Origin: a virus
Length of the DNA stretch: 5,883 nt
Direction: 5' to 3' (one strand)
IMG/VR virus record: IMGVR_UViG_3300045988_069267
Span: 1-5,883 of that record
Shown one piece after another: positions 1-5,883 of this stretch; position 1 is the stretch's first letter; every line of letters starts with the position of its first letter. The notes under the pieces were generated by a model. It was not told the origin of the DNA, did not search any database, and saw only the letters and a program-made list of their open reading frames with translations. The position numbers and the translations under genes are program-made.

Positions 1-55
1 CTTGTTGTAGTAGTAGTTGTAGTAGTGTTGAAAGTGTTGAAAACTCGTTTTTTTA
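1..55. repeat. Terminal redundancy (assembly overlap of a circular genome). It is identical to 5829..5883.
   Basis: Base-by-base comparison shows that cttgttgtagtagtagttgtagtagtgttgaaagtgttgaaaactcgtttttttta occurs at both window ends. The offset is 5828 nt. Confidence 0.95.
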
Positions 56-192
56 ACGTTACTACGTTTATTTATTGTCTTTTTGCCTGTTGAAAACTTT
101 GTTGAAAACTTGTTGAATTGTTGAATGTTCGTCATTTTAACGAATTTCTTTGTGCAACTTGTTGTTGAAAACCTGTTGAAAGTGTTGAAAAC
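26..192. repeat. Iteron-like array with nine direct copies of the core TGTTGAA (mostly TGTTGAAAAC) in non-coding DNA.
   Basis: Copies start at 26, 35, 88, 100, 111, 119, 163, 174 and 183, all in the same orientation. A 21-nt direct repeat, tgttgaaagtgttgaaaactc, occurs at 26..46 and 174..194. An adjacent GTTGTAGTAGT tandem lies at 4..14 and 16..26. Confidence 0.85.
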
Positions 193-235
193 TCAAGTTT
201 TCCACATTCTCTTTTTTTTGTACTATTGTTTCTTT

Positions 236-268
236 GCGCGTGTGTGCACGTTTCGTGCGCGCGCGCGT
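236..268. other. Alternating purine-pyrimidine (CG/TG) tract that also forms an imperfect hairpin.
   Basis: The sequence is gcgcgtgtgtgcacg-ttt-cgtgcgcgcgcgcgt. Arms 236..250 and 254..268 pair over 15 positions if four G:T wobbles are allowed on the plus strand. The same positions are A:C mismatches on the minus strand. Confidence 0.6.
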
Positions 269-305
269 ATAGTGATCATAGACTGTTTGCTTTACTACAG
301 CGGCA

Positions 306-324
306 GCCCCCCGCGTAGGGGGGC
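306..324. other. GC-rich hairpin A (7-bp stem, 5-nt loop).
   Basis: The sequence is gcccccc-gcgta-ggggggc. The arms 306..312 and 318..324 are perfectly complementary. Confidence 0.8.
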
Positions 325-331
325 GTGACGC

Positions 332-366
332 AAGGGGGGGCGCAAACCAATTTTGCGCCCCCCCTT
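332..366. other. GC-rich hairpin B (perfect 15-bp stem, 5-nt loop).
   Basis: aagggggggcgcaaa (332..346) and tttgcgccccccctt (352..366) are exact reverse complements, with loop ccaat. There is no U-tract after the stem on the coding (minus) strand. Confidence 0.85.
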
Positions 367-444
367 CTATATATGATTATGTTTTGGCTGCCGTTTGTTT
401 GGTGCCCCTGTGTTGGGGAACTTTAGCTTTGCGCGGAGGGGCTT

Positions 445-1314
445 TTAATCTCCTCTGTATGCGTCGAATACGTCCAAGTTTGGCATAATCGGTACTTTTT
501 GGTTGTACTTTTTGTACTTTTCTCTTATGTCTTTGGCTGCTTTTCCAGCCTTTTTTGCTGCATCTTTGGCTGCATCTTTGGCTGCTTTTCCAGCTCCTGC
601 AAGACCTTTGCCTAGTTTGCTTGCCGCATAGGTGTAATCACTCGCTTGTTTTGCGCTTGAAGTTGCTAGTTCGCTTGCCGCTTGTTCCCAGTTCTTAGCT
701 GCTTTGAACTGCTTTATGCTTGCGCTTTGCTTTGACAGTTGATACCATTTGTCTGCTAGCTCTGCTGTGTTGTTGCCGTATTCGTACATTGCGCTCACAC
801 TTGCAGCCTGTGCACTTTGCTGGTTATAACGTTGGCTCCCAATGCTTGCAGACGCTCCGCTTGTTGATGCTGTTGCTCCGTTGGTCGCTGCCAGAATTGG
901 ATTGATGCCTGCTGCAATCATATCTTTTACGGTGTCCTGATAGGCTGTCCCACGCATTTCCTTCTGAAACGCTCGTTCTGCTGCTGCCTCTGCGCTGTTG
1001 TATTTTTTCGCGCTTGCTTGGCTTCCAGCGTTGGCAAGGTTACTCAGCAGTCCGCTTATCATTTGCAGTGCGTTTGCTGTGTTTACGCTGCTCTGATTTC
1101 CGAATGTTGTGATGCCTGTCGGTGTGCTGATTTGTGTTGAACCTATCTGTTGTGGTGCTGTTATGCTGCCGGTTGTGGTCTCGTTGCCTGTGCTGGTCTC
1201 GCTCCCTGATGCTTGGCTGTCCTTGGCGCTGCTCTGGTTGCTGCTCGTTATGATGCCCGTCAGTATGCTCAGTCCTTGCATGATGTATGGCATAAAGCCT
1301 AATAATGTTTCCAT
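445..1314 (-). CDS. VP2: Minor capsid / DNA pilot protein (VP2, functional analogue of phiX174 H).
   Basis: This is a 289-aa ORF directly downstream of VP1. The N-terminus is hydrophobic (METLLGFMPYIMQGLSILTGIIT). The segment AERAFQKEMRGTAYQDTVKDMIAAGINPILAA matches the Q..M..TAYQ....D..AAG(L/I)NP.L signature I recall from gokushovirus VP2 proteins. The middle is S/T/Q/A-rich and low-complexity, and the C-terminus is K/A-rich. Confidence 0.85.
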   Translation of the reverse strand: METLLGFMPYIMQGLSILTGIITSSNQSSAKDSQASGSETSTGNETTTGSITAPQQIGSTQISTPTGITTFGNQSSVNTANALQMISGLLSNLANAGSQASAKKYNSAEAAAERAFQKEMRGTAYQDTVKDMIAAGINPILAATNGATASTSGASASIGSQRYNQQSAQAASVSAMYEYGNNTAELADKWYQLSKQSASIKQFKAAKNWEQAASELATSSAKQASDYTYAASKLGKGLAGAGKAAKDAAKDAAKKAGKAAKDIREKYKKYNQKVPIMPNLDVFDAYRGD

Positions 1315-1315
1315 T

Positions 1316-1342
1316 CAAAAATAGCCCCGCTTTTGCGGGGCT
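1316..1342 (-). terminator. Rho-independent terminator or attenuator hairpin between VP1 and VP2.
   Basis: The minus strand reads AGCCCCGC-aaaa-GCGGGGCT followed by ATTTTTGA and then the VP2 ATG. The stem is 8 bp and GC-rich, the loop is 4 nt, and a T5 tract follows. Confidence 0.7.
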
Positions 1343-1352
1343 TCCTCCTTTC

Positions 1353-2999
1353 TTAGATTCTTTCGATTCCGGGAATGCTGTAGATAGGCATCTCGCGGTA
1401 CCAGTCTTCGTTGAAGTAGAAGTCACACAGGAACTGATGACTGATGCTGCTGGTTACTGCGATTGTACGGTCGATGTTTTCCTGTCCTTCCTGAATCCAT
1501 GCCGCCGAGAGTCGCGGCAGTTTGTTATAGTCGTCCGCATAGTGCCATGCGTCCAAACTGGTCTGATAGTTAGACCGCATTTCGCCGGTTACGTAAGATG
1601 GCTTGTATCGGTAGTCTGCCCATGCTTCTTGATAACCAAAGATTTCTTCATCTTCTGCCGTGCCCTGTGCATAGATTTCGCGGTTGTATACCGGCTGCTC
1701 ACCCAGTGCTGCCAGTCGTGGGTCGTAGTAGGTGAACCGTCCGCCACGCGTCCACTTGGTTGCCAGTCCCTGCTGGTAGCTGTGTTCCACTCTTACCACT
1801 GCCAGACCGATGATATAGCCGTATTCGGTCGCTGCATAGTCTACCATCTGCTTGCTGCATGTGGTCAGGCTGTATGCTGCTGTATTGCCCAGTGCCTGCC
1901 CGGTTTTCGGGTCTGTCTGGCTCGTCTGGACAACCTGATTTACATTGATTGCGATACGCTGACCGCCGATGTATTCAGGAATCTGTAGACGGCTGTCCGG
2001 ACTTGTCACGCCCCATGTGCCGGAAAGGAACTCGCGGTATCTCGTGCCGTTGCGTGCATCAGCTTCAAAAATGTGCTGCAAGGCAATTGCCATGCGCAAG
2101 TCTTGTATGCTGATTGCGTTTACATTGGTCAGGTCTGCGAACAAATAACCGCCGGCGCCTTCTTCGCCATCTTTTTCCCCTGTGAATTGCATTATTTTGG
2201 GGTCTCCTGCGTATGTCAACGACCCCGGCGTGTTTAAGCTCTTGCCTAGAATCATTTCCGGACCCCTGCCCGTTTCCAGACTTGGGATTGTTTCGCCGGT
2301 TGCAGTTCCCAGTCTAAGCGGTGCATTGCCCGTCAGGTTGATTTCCACAGGGTCATTTTTTAACGGCGAGGGGAGACAGGATGTGAAATAGTCGTGGAAC
2401 TTACTAGCCTTGGCCGGCTTTTGTGCGTAGAGTGTCGCTTCGTTTTCCGATGCGGTTGCTGTTGGGTAGTTTGTGTTTAATATTTCTGCTTTCGGGTTAC
2501 TGTTAGTTCCTGCTTCATCTGTTTTTTTGTAGCCCAACATTAACGGTGCTTCAAGATTTTCATCTCTGAACCACTCGTTGTAAATCATGGCATATGCGCG
2601 TGCTGGGAGTGCGTTCACTTTGAGTTCTTTCGCGATTCCGGTCGGCAGTCCGAAATAGTCCCCAATGCTGCCATTATTCAGGCCGTTGCTGCCGCCGATT
2701 TTGCAAGTCGGTGTGCTGTATTCTGTTTTTTCTGCCCAGTAGTTGGTATCGTTTTCGCCGAACATGTTCTCCCAGTGTTCCCACAGTAGACGGCACGGAA
2801 CAAAGAAGAAATAGGTGTCCATGTAGCAGTTATCCATCACCGGATAGATAGGTGTACTCATACGGATGAGACCGTTCAGGCGTATACGTGCGGTATCGCC
2901 CGGAAGTACCTCATCGCAGTAGATGGGCACTAAGTCGCCCTCGTTGATGGTCGTCAAGAGTTGATGGCTTCGGTCAAACTTGCTTCTCGGTCGTTCCAT
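1353..2999 (-). CDS. VP1: Major capsid protein (VP1, phiX174 F-protein family).
   Basis: This is the largest ORF. The N-terminus RSKFDRSHQLLTTINEGDLVPIYCDEVLPGDT is the classic microvirus capsid signature (FDLSH...G.L.PI...EVLPGD). The length is typical of gokushovirus VP1. The ORF-track start at 3008 is a GTG. I prefer the ATG at 2999 (MERPRSKFD...). Neither start has a clear Shine-Dalgarno sequence. Confidence 0.95.
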   Translation of the reverse strand: MERPRSKFDRSHQLLTTINEGDLVPIYCDEVLPGDTARIRLNGLIRMSTPIYPVMDNCYMDTYFFFVPCRLLWEHWENMFGENDTNYWAEKTEYSTPTCKIGGSNGLNNGSIGDYFGLPTGIAKELKVNALPARAYAMIYNEWFRDENLEAPLMLGYKKTDEAGTNSNPKAEILNTNYPTATASENEATLYAQKPAKASKFHDYFTSCLPSPLKNDPVEINLTGNAPLRLGTATGETIPSLETGRGPEMILGKSLNTPGSLTYAGDPKIMQFTGEKDGEEGAGGYLFADLTNVNAISIQDLRMAIALQHIFEADARNGTRYREFLSGTWGVTSPDSRLQIPEYIGGQRIAINVNQVVQTSQTDPKTGQALGNTAAYSLTTCSKQMVDYAATEYGYIIGLAVVRVEHSYQQGLATKWTRGGRFTYYDPRLAALGEQPVYNREIYAQGTAEDEEIFGYQEAWADYRYKPSYVTGEMRSNYQTSLDAWHYADDYNKLPRLSAAWIQEGQENIDRTIAVTSSISHQFLCDFYFNEDWYREMPIYSIPGIERI

Positions 3000-3024
3000 C
3001 CGTGGCACTTGCGCGAAATGGTTT

Positions 3025-3444
3025 TCACTGTTTCGGTTCGTTTTCCTTCACCTCCTCCTCTTTCTCTTCCTGCTTCGGCTGTTCGGTTTGCTGCATCTGT
3101 TTCAGCTGTTCCATTGTTTTGGCTGCAGCTTCGGCCTTTTCGTGCATCGTCATGATATCCTTCGGCAGATTTTCAAGCTCGGTGCCTTCGGTGTATACCA
3201 TGCTTTTTGCTTTGATGCTGGTGTCCCCAGCTTCCAGCCGTGCGATTGCGCTTGCAAGGTCGTAGCCCTCGCCGGCTCGCTGGATTTTTTCATATGTGTT
3301 TTCATCCGGCTGCTGGATGTAGTCGGTTGTGCCGTTCGGTCGCTTTACCGCTTTCCACGTTGGTTCTGTCTTGCTGCCTGGATTGTTTGTTACTCTCTCT
3401 GTCGGCAGACCGTAGTACCTTACCATTGCATCAGGATTTAACAT
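3025..3444 (-). CDS. Putative internal scaffolding protein (VP3-like). The function is tentative.
   Basis: This is a 139-aa ORF with AAGGAG (3457..3452) 7 nt upstream of the ATG. It lies immediately upstream of VP1. It has a highly acidic, Glu/Lys/Gln-rich C-terminal tail (QQTEQPKQEEKEEEVKENEPKQ). The segment VYTEGTELENLPKDIMTMHEKAEAAAKTMEQL loosely resembles the Y.D....P.D..A....A...F..L region I recall in gokushovirus VP3. Confidence 0.5.
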   Translation of the reverse strand: MLNPDAMVRYYGLPTERVTNNPGSKTEPTWKAVKRPNGTTDYIQQPDENTYEKIQRAGEGYDLASAIARLEAGDTSIKAKSMVYTEGTELENLPKDIMTMHEKAEAAAKTMEQLKQMQQTEQPKQEEKEEEVKENEPKQ

Positions 3445-3685
3445 TTGCCGTCTCCTTCAGGTCGATGAGCCGCGCGATGTGTTCCGGCATTGCTTCGCTC
3501 ATGTAGCCGGTTTCGGTGTCGAATTCGCCTAGCTCTACGAGCGAAATATCTTCAATTTCGTCGGGCTTGCTTTCGTTGGCCTTCCATCGTGCCGTTCGGA
3601 CTGCCTGTGCCCTGTTGTTCTGCAAGAACGGCTGCGAGTAGCCGTTGGTCAGTGCATCGTGGAACGAGTAGAATTTCAGTTTCAT
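3431..3685 (-). CDS. Small non-structural protein, VP5-like (analogue of phiX174 protein C). The function is tentative.
   Basis: This is an 84-aa ORF with AAGGAG (3697..3692) 6 nt upstream of the ATG. It overlaps the next gene by 14 nt, which suggests coupled translation. The pattern MKLKF.S.HD....GYSQPF...N.AQAVR...DISLVELGEFDTETG resembles my recollection of gokushovirus VP5, a protein of roughly this length. Confidence 0.55.
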   Translation of the reverse strand: MKLKFYSFHDALTNGYSQPFLQNNRAQAVRTARWKANESKPDEIEDISLVELGEFDTETGYMSEAMPEHIARLIDLKETANVKS

Positions 3686-3696
3686 GTTTTTCTCCT

Positions 3697-3813
3697 TTAC
3701 TCTTTGTCTTTGTTTGCATCCTTCAGTGCGTGGTAGATTTCGTCCAGCTTTTCAAGGATGTTCATCATCAGAGCAATTGCTTCCTTGACGTCCTTGACCT
3801 TAATCAGTGCCAT
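3697..3813 (-). CDS. Small hypothetical protein of 38 aa (MALIKVKDVKEAIALMMNILEKLDEIYHALKDANKDKE). The upstream in-frame ATG at 3885 would give 62 aa.
   Basis: The purine-rich sequence AAAGGGGG (3828..3821) lies 7 nt upstream of the ATG at 3813. The longer form (3697..3885) has no Shine-Dalgarno sequence but adds a very basic N-terminus (MYGRRYHGAVSGCKRHKPKKGGDL). Its stop codon overlaps the ribosome-binding region of the next gene. The start codon is unresolved. Confidence 0.4.
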   Translation of the reverse strand: MALIKVKDVKEAIALMMNILEKLDEIYHALKDANKDKE

Positions 3814-3963
3814 TAAGTCGCCCCCTTTCTTTGGTTTGTGTCGCTTACAGCCGGATACCGCCCCGTGATACCTTCGGCCGTACATTGATGTTTTTTACCC
3901 GCTTTGCCGTCTGGGTAAATCGTTTCTGGTCTCCTCGACCCGCTCCGCTTCTGTGTGCTATTT

Positions 3964-4344
3964 TTATACCCCCTTCCTATATTTGTTTGTCCGTACGTCT
4001 ATATGTACAAAATTAGTATATCGGATTATTCCGCCTTTGTCAAGTATGCTATCTGCATATTCTGCGATTTCTTTTGAGTTGTGCCCTTTTACTACGATAT
4101 CGGCGGCCATTCCTTTGCAATGGAAGGATGCTTTTGCTCCGTTTACTTTTCTGTTATGCTTTACGGTTCTGAAGCCGCTGTTGATGATTACCGGTGCGCC
4201 AAAGTGATTTCGGATTTTTTCTAGTGTTTCTATTAGTTGGCTATCGATTAGGATATTGTCTGTTCCGTCTTTGCAAGCAAATTCGTTTGCCTTGAAGTGT
4301 TCGGATACTTTTGTATTGTCCTCTTTGCTGTATGCCATTAACAT
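3964..4344 (-). CDS. Zinc D,D- or L,D-peptidase of the M15 / LAS fold (Peptidase_M15_3-like). It is a putative peptidoglycan hydrolase or endolysin.
   Basis: This is a 126-aa ORF. HFKANEFACKDG matches the F..EF.C family N-terminal motif. SGFRTVKHNRKVNGAKASFHCKGMAADI matches SG.R....N...G....S.H..G.A.D, with the H-x6-D zinc ligands. FVHIDVR supplies the third ligand, H.D. No signal peptide, transmembrane segment or cell-wall-binding domain is visible. Confidence 0.85.
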   Translation of the reverse strand: MLMAYSKEDNTKVSEHFKANEFACKDGTDNILIDSQLIETLEKIRNHFGAPVIINSGFRTVKHNRKVNGAKASFHCKGMAADIVVKGHNSKEIAEYADSILDKGGIIRYTNFVHIDVRTNKYRKGV

Positions 4345-4366
4345 TGTTCGTCAGCCATCCTTTTTG

Positions 4367-4573
4367 TTATTTTTGGAATGCCCAAATTCCCTCTGCTGGT
4401 ACTTCCCAACTTTTGTAGTTGTTCTCTTCATCCCAACAATAGAGATATTCTGTGTAAGCTTTTAGCGTTTCGTCCCATTCTGTTCTTAGTTCGTATTCGC
4501 ATTTTCCGCTATACACTTTTCCTTCATCGTACAGTTTTTGGATTGTTTTTTTACTTAATCTTGGTTTTCTCAT
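4367..4573 (-). CDS. Hypothetical protein of 68 aa, the first gene after the strong promoter.
   Basis: AAGGAAGG (4589..4582) lies 8 nt upstream of the ATG at 4573. The ORF-track start at 4582 is a GTG that sits inside this Shine-Dalgarno sequence, so I reject it. The N-terminus is basic (MRKPRLSKKTIQK) and the C-terminal half is acidic and rich in Trp and Tyr. I recognise no family. Confidence 0.6.
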   Translation of the reverse strand: MRKPRLSKKTIQKLYDEGKVYSGKCEYELRTEWDETLKAYTEYLYCWDEENNYKSWEVPAEGIWAFQK

Positions 4574-4600
4574 TTTGAGCACCTTCCTTTCTTTGATTAT

Positions 4601-4628
4601 ATTATACCACTTTTTTTAAATTTGTCAA
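4601..4628 (-). promoter_or_regulatory. Near-consensus sigma70/sigmaA promoter with an extended -10 element.
   Basis: The minus strand reads TTGACA (4628..4623), then a 16-nt spacer aatttaaaaaaagTGg, then TATAAT (4606..4601). The TGn extended -10 is present. A second overlapping TATAAT lies at 4601..4596. An AT-rich, UP-like tract lies upstream (4629..4650). The ribosome-binding site and the ATG at 4573 lie downstream. Confidence 0.75.
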
Positions 4629-4652
4629 TACTTTTAATTGATATATCACTTT

Positions 4653-4749
4653 GGAGCTTTGCTCCTTTGTTTTGATGGCGCTTTAGCGCCCTGTCGTGTG
4701 GAGCGCACGCGGAACTCGACTTAATGTTTTCGTGATTTCACGAAAACAT
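4653..4749. repeat. Cluster of three palindromes or hairpins between the rep stop codon and the promoter.
   Basis: The three are ggagc-ttt-gctcc (4653..4665), ggcgc-ttta-gcgcc (4677..4690) and the perfect 12-nt arms atgttttcgtga / tcacgaaaacat (4724..4735 and 4738..4749). A degenerate direct copy, atgttttcg-g-ttcacg, lies at 4772..4787 inside the rep 3' end. Confidence 0.8.
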
Positions 4750-4769
4750 CATTTTTAGCGCTGTGCGCG

Positions 4770-5774
4770 TCATGTTTTCGGTTCACGCCATTTTTGCTTT
4801 AGCTTGTCTTTTTCTTTTTGAATGTTGAGATAGGTTTCATAATCTACGCTTGTGCTTTGTTCGAGATTGTTTAAACTTTGTATTGCACTGCGTCTGCGTC
4901 TGGCTCTTACCTCTCTCAGCTCGTCAGAATGTGCCTTAAAATAGCTTTCTGTGTCTTGGCTGGTATCCTTATCTAGAATCTTATCAAAATAGCGTGGCGG
5001 CCTTTTCTCGCGGCCTCCTGCACAGATGATGCTATCTGTTTTTAAGATTTCATCTTTGTGTTCGTTCAGGTACTTTTCGCCGATACCTTTTGACATGATC
5101 CTGAACTCAGGCTCTCTGCCTTCCATCCAGTATTTTGCTGCTTGTTCTGCACCTATGGCTTTTTTGTTGACGTACTGCGCCACATATGCAAAGCTGCCCG
5201 GCTGTGCTGGTGAAAAGTCTATCATGCCTTTGCCCCAGATTTTTTCCAACCATTCGCTTTTAAAATAGCTGTTGCCTTTTTGGTTTTTGTACCATTGCGC
5301 ATCCGGTGGTTTTAGTCCAAATACTATTGCATGATAGTGTGGTCTTTTTGTTCTGTCGCCGTATTCGGCCGCTAGGAAATATTTTATTGGTTTCTTGTAT
5401 GCTTTCCGTAGCCGTTTTATAAACAGCTGTACGTCTCGCTTATTCACTGTCTGGCTTTGAATGCTTCTGTAGCCTTTGATAATCTCTCCGTATGGGATGT
5501 GTTCGTCGTCATAAGTCAGTGTCAGAAAAATCACATCGTCCCACTCTTTTGCTTCCAGTTCTATTCTTGTTGCCCATTGGTCTGCTATCTGTTTTCGGCA
5601 ATATTCGCATTTACCGCATGGTAACAGTGCGAATTTTCCTTTTTTTACTCCGTCCATGATGTTCATTTGCAGTCCTTGCTTTGATAGGTTTTCCAGACTT
5701 CCCCATAGCTGCGGTTTCTTCGTGTCCATCTGGAATACTAATGGTTTTGTACATGGCATTTTTGTTACTGGCAC
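4770..5774 (-). CDS. VP4: Rolling-circle replication initiation protein (VP4, phiX174 A-protein superfamily, HUH endonuclease).
   Basis: This is a 334-aa ORF. It shows motif I FLTLTY, motif II RPHYHAIVF (the HUH motif) and motif III YVAQYVNKK. Motif III is a double-Tyr active site, almost the same as the phiX174 A sequence YVAKYVNKK as I recall it. A Cys cluster LPCGKCEYCR is also present. The track start at 5774 is a GTG with AAGGAAG (5784..5778) just upstream. The ATG at 5759 (MPCTKPL...) is an alternative start. Confidence 0.93.
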   Translation of the reverse strand: MPVTKMPCTKPLVFQMDTKKPQLWGSLENLSKQGLQMNIMDGVKKGKFALLPCGKCEYCRKQIADQWATRIELEAKEWDDVIFLTLTYDDEHIPYGEIIKGYRSIQSQTVNKRDVQLFIKRLRKAYKKPIKYFLAAEYGDRTKRPHYHAIVFGLKPPDAQWYKNQKGNSYFKSEWLEKIWGKGMIDFSPAQPGSFAYVAQYVNKKAIGAEQAAKYWMEGREPEFRIMSKGIGEKYLNEHKDEILKTDSIICAGGREKRPPRYFDKILDKDTSQDTESYFKAHSDELREVRARRRRSAIQSLNNLEQSTSVDYETYLNIQKEKDKLKQKWREPKT

Positions 5775-5828
5775 AAGCTTCCTTGTCTATCTTGTGCCAG
5801 TTGACACCTCGCTTTCTTTATATATTAA

Positions 5829-5883
5829 CTTGTTGTAGTAGTAGTTGTAGTAGTGTTGAAAGTGTTGAAAACTCGTTTTTTTA
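5829..5883. repeat. Second copy of the terminal redundancy, identical to 1..55.
   Basis: Exact 55/55 match to 1..55. The window ends inside the repeat, so this is wrap-around of a circle rather than a biological terminal repeat. Confidence 0.95.

Follow-up and report, generated by a model that had tools for sequence, protein, structure and literature searches.

Peptidases in microviruses and the locus examined

Peptidases of the family Peptidase_M15_3 (PF08291) were described in 11 human-associated Microviridae, five of them gokushoviruses, by Roux et al. in 2012, who showed that these genes had repeatedly been acquired horizontally, proposed an endolysin role for their products, and noted both the contrast with protein E of phiX174 and the link to the holin–endolysin cassettes of tailed phages (PMC3394797). 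Peptidases have since been presented as recurrent lysis accessory genes of several microvirus families, with documented exchange between distant microviruses (Kirchberger et al. 2022; PMC9239249), and M15 peptidases also occur in marine and rhizobial microvirus isolates (PMC11499846, PMC9865509). We examined one such gene in the 5,883 nucleotides (nt) of IMG/VR record IMGVR_UViG_3300045988_069267, positions 1 to 5,883, hereafter the window. The gene is an open reading frame (ORF) of 126 amino acids (aa) that starts with ATG and occupies 3964–4344 on the minus strand, exactly as described in an earlier reading of the sequence (the original prediction), which took its product for an M15/LAS-fold peptidoglycan peptidase encoded without a visible holin.

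The closest described systems are the M15_3 peptidases of human-gut Gokushovirinae and Alpavirinae (PMC3394797; for example KX513876 and KT264792), with which the window's gene shares Pfam family, virus group, habitat and proposed role, as well as, in the gut gokushoviruses, a position between the VP4 and VP5/VP3 genes. The KT264792 peptidase is 75% identical to that of the window; the KX513876 genome is ~87% nucleotide-identical to the window, though its peptidase is only 52% identical to the window's allele, owing to cassette exchange, which is no difference in kind. Microvirus Ebor likewise encodes a wall hydrolase, Gp7, which is active on peptidoglycan in zymograms and was found in only trace amounts in virions (PMC11980548). 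Ebor differs in belonging to the subfamily 'Tainavirinae' and in encoding a 45-aa predicted membrane protein that the window lacks; the HHpred match of Gp7 is to 6SSC. Protein E of phiX174, an inhibitor of MraY, is likewise a case of microvirus lysis without a holin–endolysin pair, but it is an overprinted, non-enzymatic membrane protein, and we found no ORF of this type in the three coding-strand frames of the window's circular genome.

An M15 peptidase in a gut microvirus is already known: published, annotated in GenBank and abundant. The KX513876 record carries a 'peptidase M15' at the corresponding locus, the exact protein of the window is already present in IMG/ENA on three contigs, and its 90%-identity cluster has 197 members, some with NCBI entries named 'peptidase [Microviridae sp.]'. 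Matches at E ≤ 1e-10 came from 682 protein clusters, and the best 120 of these (at least 63% identity) lay almost entirely on contigs of at most 6.4 kb. Relatives of the peptidase are encoded on at least 543 IMG/VR stretches; the best 41 loci were all on contigs of 4.1–7.2 kb, 40 of them with a match to VP1. The original prediction had supposed M15 peptidases to be sporadic, and hence new, in microviruses, and this part of it fails because of the 2012 description, the KX513876 annotation, the public exact protein and the many microvirus relatives; the gene is common and already functionally described in microviruses. As a discovery, the peptidase gene therefore matters little.

Family, fold and conservation of the peptidase

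The peptidase matched PF08291 with E = 6.2e-27 and 94.3 bits (cut-off 23.2), its residues 16–116 aligning with profile positions 2–108 of 108; PF05951 was matched more weakly, and phrog_894, annotated 'endolysin', at E = 1.7e-40. A sequence search of the PDB returned a single match, 1LBU, the zinc D-Ala-D-Ala carboxypeptidase of Streptomyces albus G and type enzyme of M15A, in which GFRS...SRHMYGHAAD aligns with GFRT...SFHCKGMAAD of the peptidase. An AlphaFold2 model built on 46 homologues had a predicted local distance difference test score (pLDDT) of 83.5 and a predicted template-modelling score (pTM) of 0.80. Foldseek placed 1LBU first among PDB structures (template-modelling score, TM, 0.53), followed by hedgehog N-domains and VanY/LdcB, and a LAS fold is predicted because these top matches are LAS-fold families; in BFVD, peptidases of phages and microviruses matched the model at TM values as high as 0.90. 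Although 1LBU is the best solved match in both sequence and fold, the two proteins share only ~26% identity across 88 aligned columns, and 1LBU, a carboxypeptidase that is secreted by a bacterium, carries an additional N-terminal domain.

Residues H75, D82, H114, R59, Y109, F112 and D116 were invariant in the 46-sequence alignment. We detected the motif SxHxxGxAxD as S73-F-H75-C-K-G78-M-A80-A-D82 and the third-ligand motif (W/F)xH as F112-V-H114, both invariant among the 46 homologues and both as defined in PMC13461873, and R59, within GFRT, is aligned to the GFRS arginine of 1LBU. The predicted zinc ligands are H75, D82 and H114. By motif, the invariant residues correspond to the zinc triad and the substrate-binding and catalytic residues of LysPM1, a 116-aa single-domain Peptidase_M15_3 endolysin of Proteus phage Homer that lyses permeabilised cells, is inactivated by ethylenediaminetetraacetic acid (EDTA) and is partly restored by Zn2+ or Ca2+ (PMC13461873). 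LysPM1 and other single-domain M15A endolysins resemble the window's product in length (~116–126 aa), in both motifs and in the conserved Arg, Tyr and Asp, and its identity to peptidases from further Proteus phages (PA_03, Myduc) is 47%. Relative to a 92%-identical allele in the related contig L004 (relatives are denoted by L and a number), the ratio of non-synonymous to synonymous substitution rates (dN/dS) was 0.09, and the peptidase is under purifying selection. Judged by sequence and model, the product is a single-domain Peptidase_M15_3 (MEROPS M15A, LAS fold) zinc peptidase consisting of the catalytic domain only. The family matches, fold, invariant residues and low dN/dS mark the observation as real rather than a chance resemblance, and the family and fold given in the original prediction stand on the profile, PDB and structure searches alike.

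A probable endolysin

Outside the microviruses, the nearest homologues of the peptidase are endolysins of large gut phages that join a peptidase to PG_binding_1 (52% identical), and annotated endolysins of tailed phages of Faecalibacterium, Klebsiella, Vibrio and Yersinia are 44–48% identical to it. As a positive control, we looked for a small same-strand transmembrane ORF within 1.5 kb of related peptidases in tailed phages and prophages, and one was present in 33 of 34 loci, so these relatives sit in lysis cassettes. The window differs in that no such holin-like ORF adjoins its M15A gene.

We consider it likely that the peptidase is a soluble, zinc-dependent, cytoplasmically made and late-acting M15A endolysin that would free progeny by cutting the peptide part of mature peptidoglycan. 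The matches to the Pfam family and the PHROG endolysin family, the LAS fold and the invariant residues of LysPM1 type argue for this reading, as do the identity to tailed-phage endolysins whose loci almost all carry a transmembrane ORF, the low dN/dS, and a dedicated perfect promoter with a Shine-Dalgarno sequence (described below). A like function was assigned by Roux et al. and by Kirchberger et al., and the Ebor hydrolase is active in zymograms. Under this reading, microviruses would have acquired the catalytic domain horizontally from the tailed-phage endolysin pool and would exchange it among gokushoviruses as a cassette with its own strong sigma-70-type promoter, placed between VP4 and the structural genes; cleavage of mature peptidoglycan late in infection would be the role and timing suggested by its homologues. 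The enzyme would reach the wall without a dedicated canonical holin, through membrane damage by another viral product or through a general, non-specific loss of membrane integrity late in infection.

Several points weigh against an endolysin. The genome encodes no holin, signal peptide, SAR (signal-anchor) segment or spanin, so that passage across the cytoplasmic membrane, which an endolysin requires, has no evident agent, and the only encoded candidate for membrane damage is the membrane-inserting N-terminus of VP2, a part that we assign to it purely by inference. The relatives L101 and L103–L105 share the window's architecture and have no peptidase, so the peptidase is not essential for release in this lineage.

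A different mode of action has the peptidase stay in the cytoplasm as an enzymatic 'amurin' that cleaves peptidoglycan precursors (D-Ala-D-Ala, UDP-MurNAc-pentapeptide or the stem peptide of lipid II) and starves wall synthesis, so that growing cells would lyse without a holin, in the spirit of phiX174 E. VanX/VanY-type M15 enzymes cleave such precursors, and it is the making of precursors that single-gene lysis systems known from small phages attack. Moreover, a muramoyl-pentapeptide DD-carboxypeptidase is the closest solved structure, the Arg that binds the terminal carboxylate in 1LBU is conserved in the peptidase, and the absence of an export signal and of a holin would be expected of an enzyme acting in this way. 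We nevertheless regard an amurin as unlikely: the 44–48% identical homologues are endolysins adjoining holin-like ORFs, LysPM1, also a Peptidase_M15_3 enzyme, lyses permeabilised cells from outside and thus acts on the mature wall, and we found no evidence of precursor cleavage by any M15A phage enzyme.

The peptidase could also act at entry, a few packaged or capsid-bound copies opening the wall locally when DNA is delivered. Some large tail-associated proteins of tailed phages do contain M15A domains (BFVD entries of 400–1,191 aa with a Gp5 OB-fold), the Ebor hydrolase was detected in purified virions (PMC11980548), and a thick-walled Firmicute host, if that is the host, would require wall penetration, the nearest cellular homologues being in Oscillospiraceae and Faecousia. 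The experiment on Ebor is the only one that bears on this idea or on the other suggestion of the original prediction, that the enzyme might modify the host wall. However, Ebor virions contained no more than traces of the hydrolase, and the window's peptidase is a stand-alone gene in a non-structural accessory slot, unfused to any structural protein. Relatives without the peptidase have the same capsid genes, and peptidase-carrying genomes are larger than peptidase-less ones (5.6–6.0 versus 5.2–5.5 kb), which would leave less room in a T=1 capsid. Such an entry lysin is therefore very improbable in our view.

In L005 (ENA k99_7785), a 42-kb contig that resembles a tailed phage, a peptidase 74% identical to the window's occupies the extreme end (10001–10348), immediately following a Tn916-type integrase and Xis. 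Either genuine exchange with a temperate Firmicute phage or chimeric assembly may account for this arrangement.

Export signals and the search for a holin

We scanned the three coding-strand frames of the circularised genome from stop to stop for segments with a 19-residue Kyte–Doolittle mean of at least 1.5. Only the N-terminus of VP2 (LLGFMPYIMQGLSILTGII) reached this value (1.62), the next best segments having means of 1.30 and 1.07; it is the sole hydrophobic, membrane-capable segment on the coding strand. No coding-strand frame besides this N-terminus thus encodes a small transmembrane protein such as belongs to a canonical holin–endolysin cassette. The peptidase itself has a polar N-terminus (MLMAYSKEDNTKVSEHF) and a best 19-residue mean of 0.63, with no signal peptide, SAR or transmembrane segment. 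These results bear out the original prediction both in describing a bare catalytic domain and in finding no holin-like ORF on the same strand. A transmembrane ORF of the kind seen in tailed-phage loci was present anywhere in the genome in just 6 of 44 related gokushovirus contigs, and the missing holin applies to peptidase-bearing microviruses generally rather than to this window in particular. We found no paper dealing with holins in peptidase-bearing microviruses.

A canonical holin might still have escaped recognition, being short, weakly hydrophobic or encoded on the complementary strand, in which case the peptidase would belong to an ordinary holin–endolysin pair. The 45-aa predicted membrane protein of Ebor (PMC11980548) speaks for such a gene, as do overprinted hydrophobic ORFs in some relatives and a complementary-strand ORF of 153 codons and unknown function that Roux et al. 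noted beside a peptidase (PMC3394797), equal in length to a very hydrophobic 153-aa ORF on the plus strand of the window. This ORF, at 2980–3441, lies antisense to VP3 and is open in all six of six clade members. We rejected it as a complementary-strand holin, and as a gene at all: it is a codon-aligned antisense frame of VP3 whose openness is unexceptional once amino-acid sequence and codon usage are taken into account (P ~0.06), the synonymous rate of VP3 is not reduced, and all relatives are rich in long antisense frames (3–8 antisense open frames of at least 100 codons per genome). Hydrophobic frames on the plus strand are ubiquitous, 62 of them in the window, because that strand is T-rich and A-poor; these observations indicate that the 2980–3441 ORF is a compositional artefact. 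Since coding-strand frames other than that of VP2 never exceed a 19-residue mean of 1.3, an overlooked holin seems to us a poor prospect.

Another gokushovirus clade contains two recurrent, small overprinted ORFs with hydrophobic stretches (...ALLSVLCVYAIITAISR... and ...SSKVLGIIILIAH...). One site, in L009, L014, L017, L019, L022 and L023, lies downstream, ~2.3–2.7 kb from the peptidase start, and seems to fall within VP1; the other, in L008, L009, L010, L012, L019, L024 and L026, lies ~0.5–0.8 kb upstream of the peptidase and, where checked (L008), inside VP4. These ORFs are possible candidates for E-like lysis genes in that clade and are absent from the window.

Cassette exchange and promoter

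Nucleotide alignment (blastn) of the window with KX513876 ended at 3987 and resumed at 4570, with ~84–87% identity elsewhere. The intervening 3988–4569 holds the peptidase and a small ORF upstream of it, and is the sole stretch without nucleotide similarity to KX513876. Its breakpoints coincide with the initiation codon of the first gene in the cassette and with the conserved peptidase C-terminal NKYRKGV, and the lowest GC content of the window (0.38–0.40) falls over it. At this site the small ORF of L001 is a different one, and its peptidase allele is only 52% identical to that of the window. Within the window's clade, VP4 is 92–97% identical and the peptidases are only 51–92% identical, and the window's peptidase is closer (70–75%) to alleles from a clade with ~43% identity in VP1. 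Because similarity is lost at 3988–4569 and the peptidase identities are discordant with those of VP4 and VP1, the sequence comparisons point to a swappable cassette of peptidase and upstream small ORF that has been exchanged among gokushoviruses.

Upstream of the cassette, at 4628–4601 on the minus strand, we detected a sigma-70/sigma-A-type promoter, TTGACA-16-TGgTATAAT, which agrees with the consensus at 12 of 12 positions and has an extended -10 TG. The pattern matched once in the window and not at all in 200 shuffles. It is followed, before the cassette, by a strong Shine-Dalgarno sequence (AAGGAAGG) at 4582–4589. Near-consensus versions occupy the equivalent position in L001, L086 and L068, and similar extended -10 promoters precede the peptidase in many relatives. 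The combination of a sigma-70/sigma-A consensus, an extended -10 and a strong Shine-Dalgarno sequence is in keeping with Firmicutes or Proteobacteria, not with Bacteroidota. The swappable peptidase/small-ORF cassette behind a perfect sigma-70-type promoter is newly found here.

Small neighbouring genes and the accessory slot

The first gene of the swapped cassette is a small acidic accessory ORF at 4367–4573 on the minus strand. Its true start is probably the ATG at 4573 (68 aa) and not the GTG at 4582, from which the ORF listing gives 4367–4582 (71 aa). It had no Pfam, PHROG or NCBIfam match and no transmembrane segment, and its homologues form only 11 clusters, all on contigs of at most 6 kb; in MG945233 and MG945447 it also lies directly upstream of the peptidase. 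We considered it, at either length, as a known chaperone or holin and rejected both, given the lack of a transmembrane segment and of a family match and the confinement of its homologues to microvirus-size contigs.

Downstream, a small basic ORF of 38 codons at 3845–3961 on the minus strand (IAHRSGAGRGDQKRFTQTAKRVKNINVRPKVSRGGIRL; conserved ...RFTQTAKRVKNINVRPKVSRGGIRL) begins 3 nt after the peptidase stop and matches, at E = 4e-6, phrog_10695, a family of unknown function. In the window it starts with ATA where L001 and L004 have ATG, a difference that a non-canonical start, coupled translation or an error in the sequence may explain.

The next ORF, orf38, at 3697–3813 on the minus strand (MALIKVKDVKEAIALMMNILEKLDEIYHALKDANKDKE), encodes 38 aa that are predicted to be helical, with no transmembrane segment and no significant family match. 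The sequence is identical in KX513876 and MT121961, and comparison with L001 and L003 gave dN = 0 and dS ~0.5–0.6. The exact protein sequence occurs on 447 public contigs, mostly unannotated in GenBank records, and 58–81% identical versions are found in gokushoviruses with VP1 only 40–48% identical, peptidase-less ones included. Among contigs carrying orf38, it follows the peptidase in 34 of 38 from distant clades, and it does so in four of six relatives from the window's own clade. We considered the peptidase and orf38 as a two-gene lysis module and rejected it, as orf38 is also present in the peptidase-less gokushoviruses L101, L103, L104 and L105 (5.2–5.5 kb). The conserved 38-aa gene, newly found here, is real and strictly constrained, and belongs to the genome backbone; it is not specific to the peptidase or a partner of it.

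In L101 and L103–L105, the slot between VP4 and orf38 contains only small non-membrane ORFs. It behaves as a general site for accessory genes, and the peptidase is an optional accessory in this lineage, since peptidase-less relatives of like architecture exist. One slot ORF of these relatives resembles the 68-aa ORF of the window (MRKPRFTREELN...).

Genome organisation and host affinities

The window begins and ends with the same 55 nt, a direct repeat that shows the genome to be a complete circle of 5,828 nt. All recognisable genes are on the minus strand. The replication initiator VP4/Rep (4770–5774; PF23343, phrog_942) forms the upstream boundary of the accessory slot, and beyond orf38 lie VP5 (3431–3685; PF20577), a VP3-like gene (3025–3444), VP1 (Phage_F; 1353–3008; PF02305, E = 9e-149) and the pilot protein VP2 (445–1314; PHROG pilot-protein families). 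VP3 matched no family and was assigned from its position and from its 72–91% identity to the gene that precedes VP1 in L001, L003, L004 and L086. On this gene content (VP1 to VP5, all encoded on a single strand of a ~5–6 kb circle), the window is a gut gokushovirus (Gokushovirinae, Microviridae), a small phage with single-stranded DNA. Nucleotide identity to GenBank gokushoviruses is 86–88%; the nearest genomes are Human gut gokushovirus KX513876, with 87.6% across 78% of the window, and MT121961.

The large non-coding region (1–444 and 5775–5883) contains nine copies of TTTCAACA on the coding strand, in paired arrays (0.24 expected), of which seven are unique after discounting the 55-nt terminal duplication, along with G/C-rich palindromes such as GGGGGGCGCAAA...TTTGCGCCCCCC. 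These arrays and palindromes may be iterons, origin elements or terminators.

The affinities of the peptidase offer hints as to the host. Endolysins of Faecalibacterium phages are 48% identical to it, and prophage-like homologues in Oscillospiraceae, Faecousia and Clostridia 39–46% identical (45–46% for Oscillospiraceae and Faecousia). These similarities are only suggestive as to the host and agree with the Faecalibacterium affinity noted by Roux et al. One complete microvirus contig of the window's clade, L086 (CAVKUS010000079.1, 5,739 nt; VP4 95% identical), is binned in an assembly labelled Bacteroides sp. CAG:545, a placement that probably arose as a binning artefact rather than being evidence of the host.

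Implications for microvirus lysis

What remains is the general question of how microviruses deploy a wall hydrolase that has no signal sequence in the absence of a holin, as also in four-gene isolates such as vB_RpoMi-Mini (PMC9865509). The window is a clean example, in that each coding-strand frame of its 5.8-kb circle can be discounted as a holin, and its promoter-driven, swappable cassette is a compact construct for experimental test. We give only a slim chance to the proposal that the lineage either lyses its hosts with no permeabilising partner, through a cytoplasmic attack on precursors like that of phiX174 E, Qbeta A2 and LysM, or infects thick-walled Firmicutes (Oscillospirales) for which the enzyme is needed. 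If true, either of these two readings would explain the recurrence of holin-less peptidases across the Microviridae.

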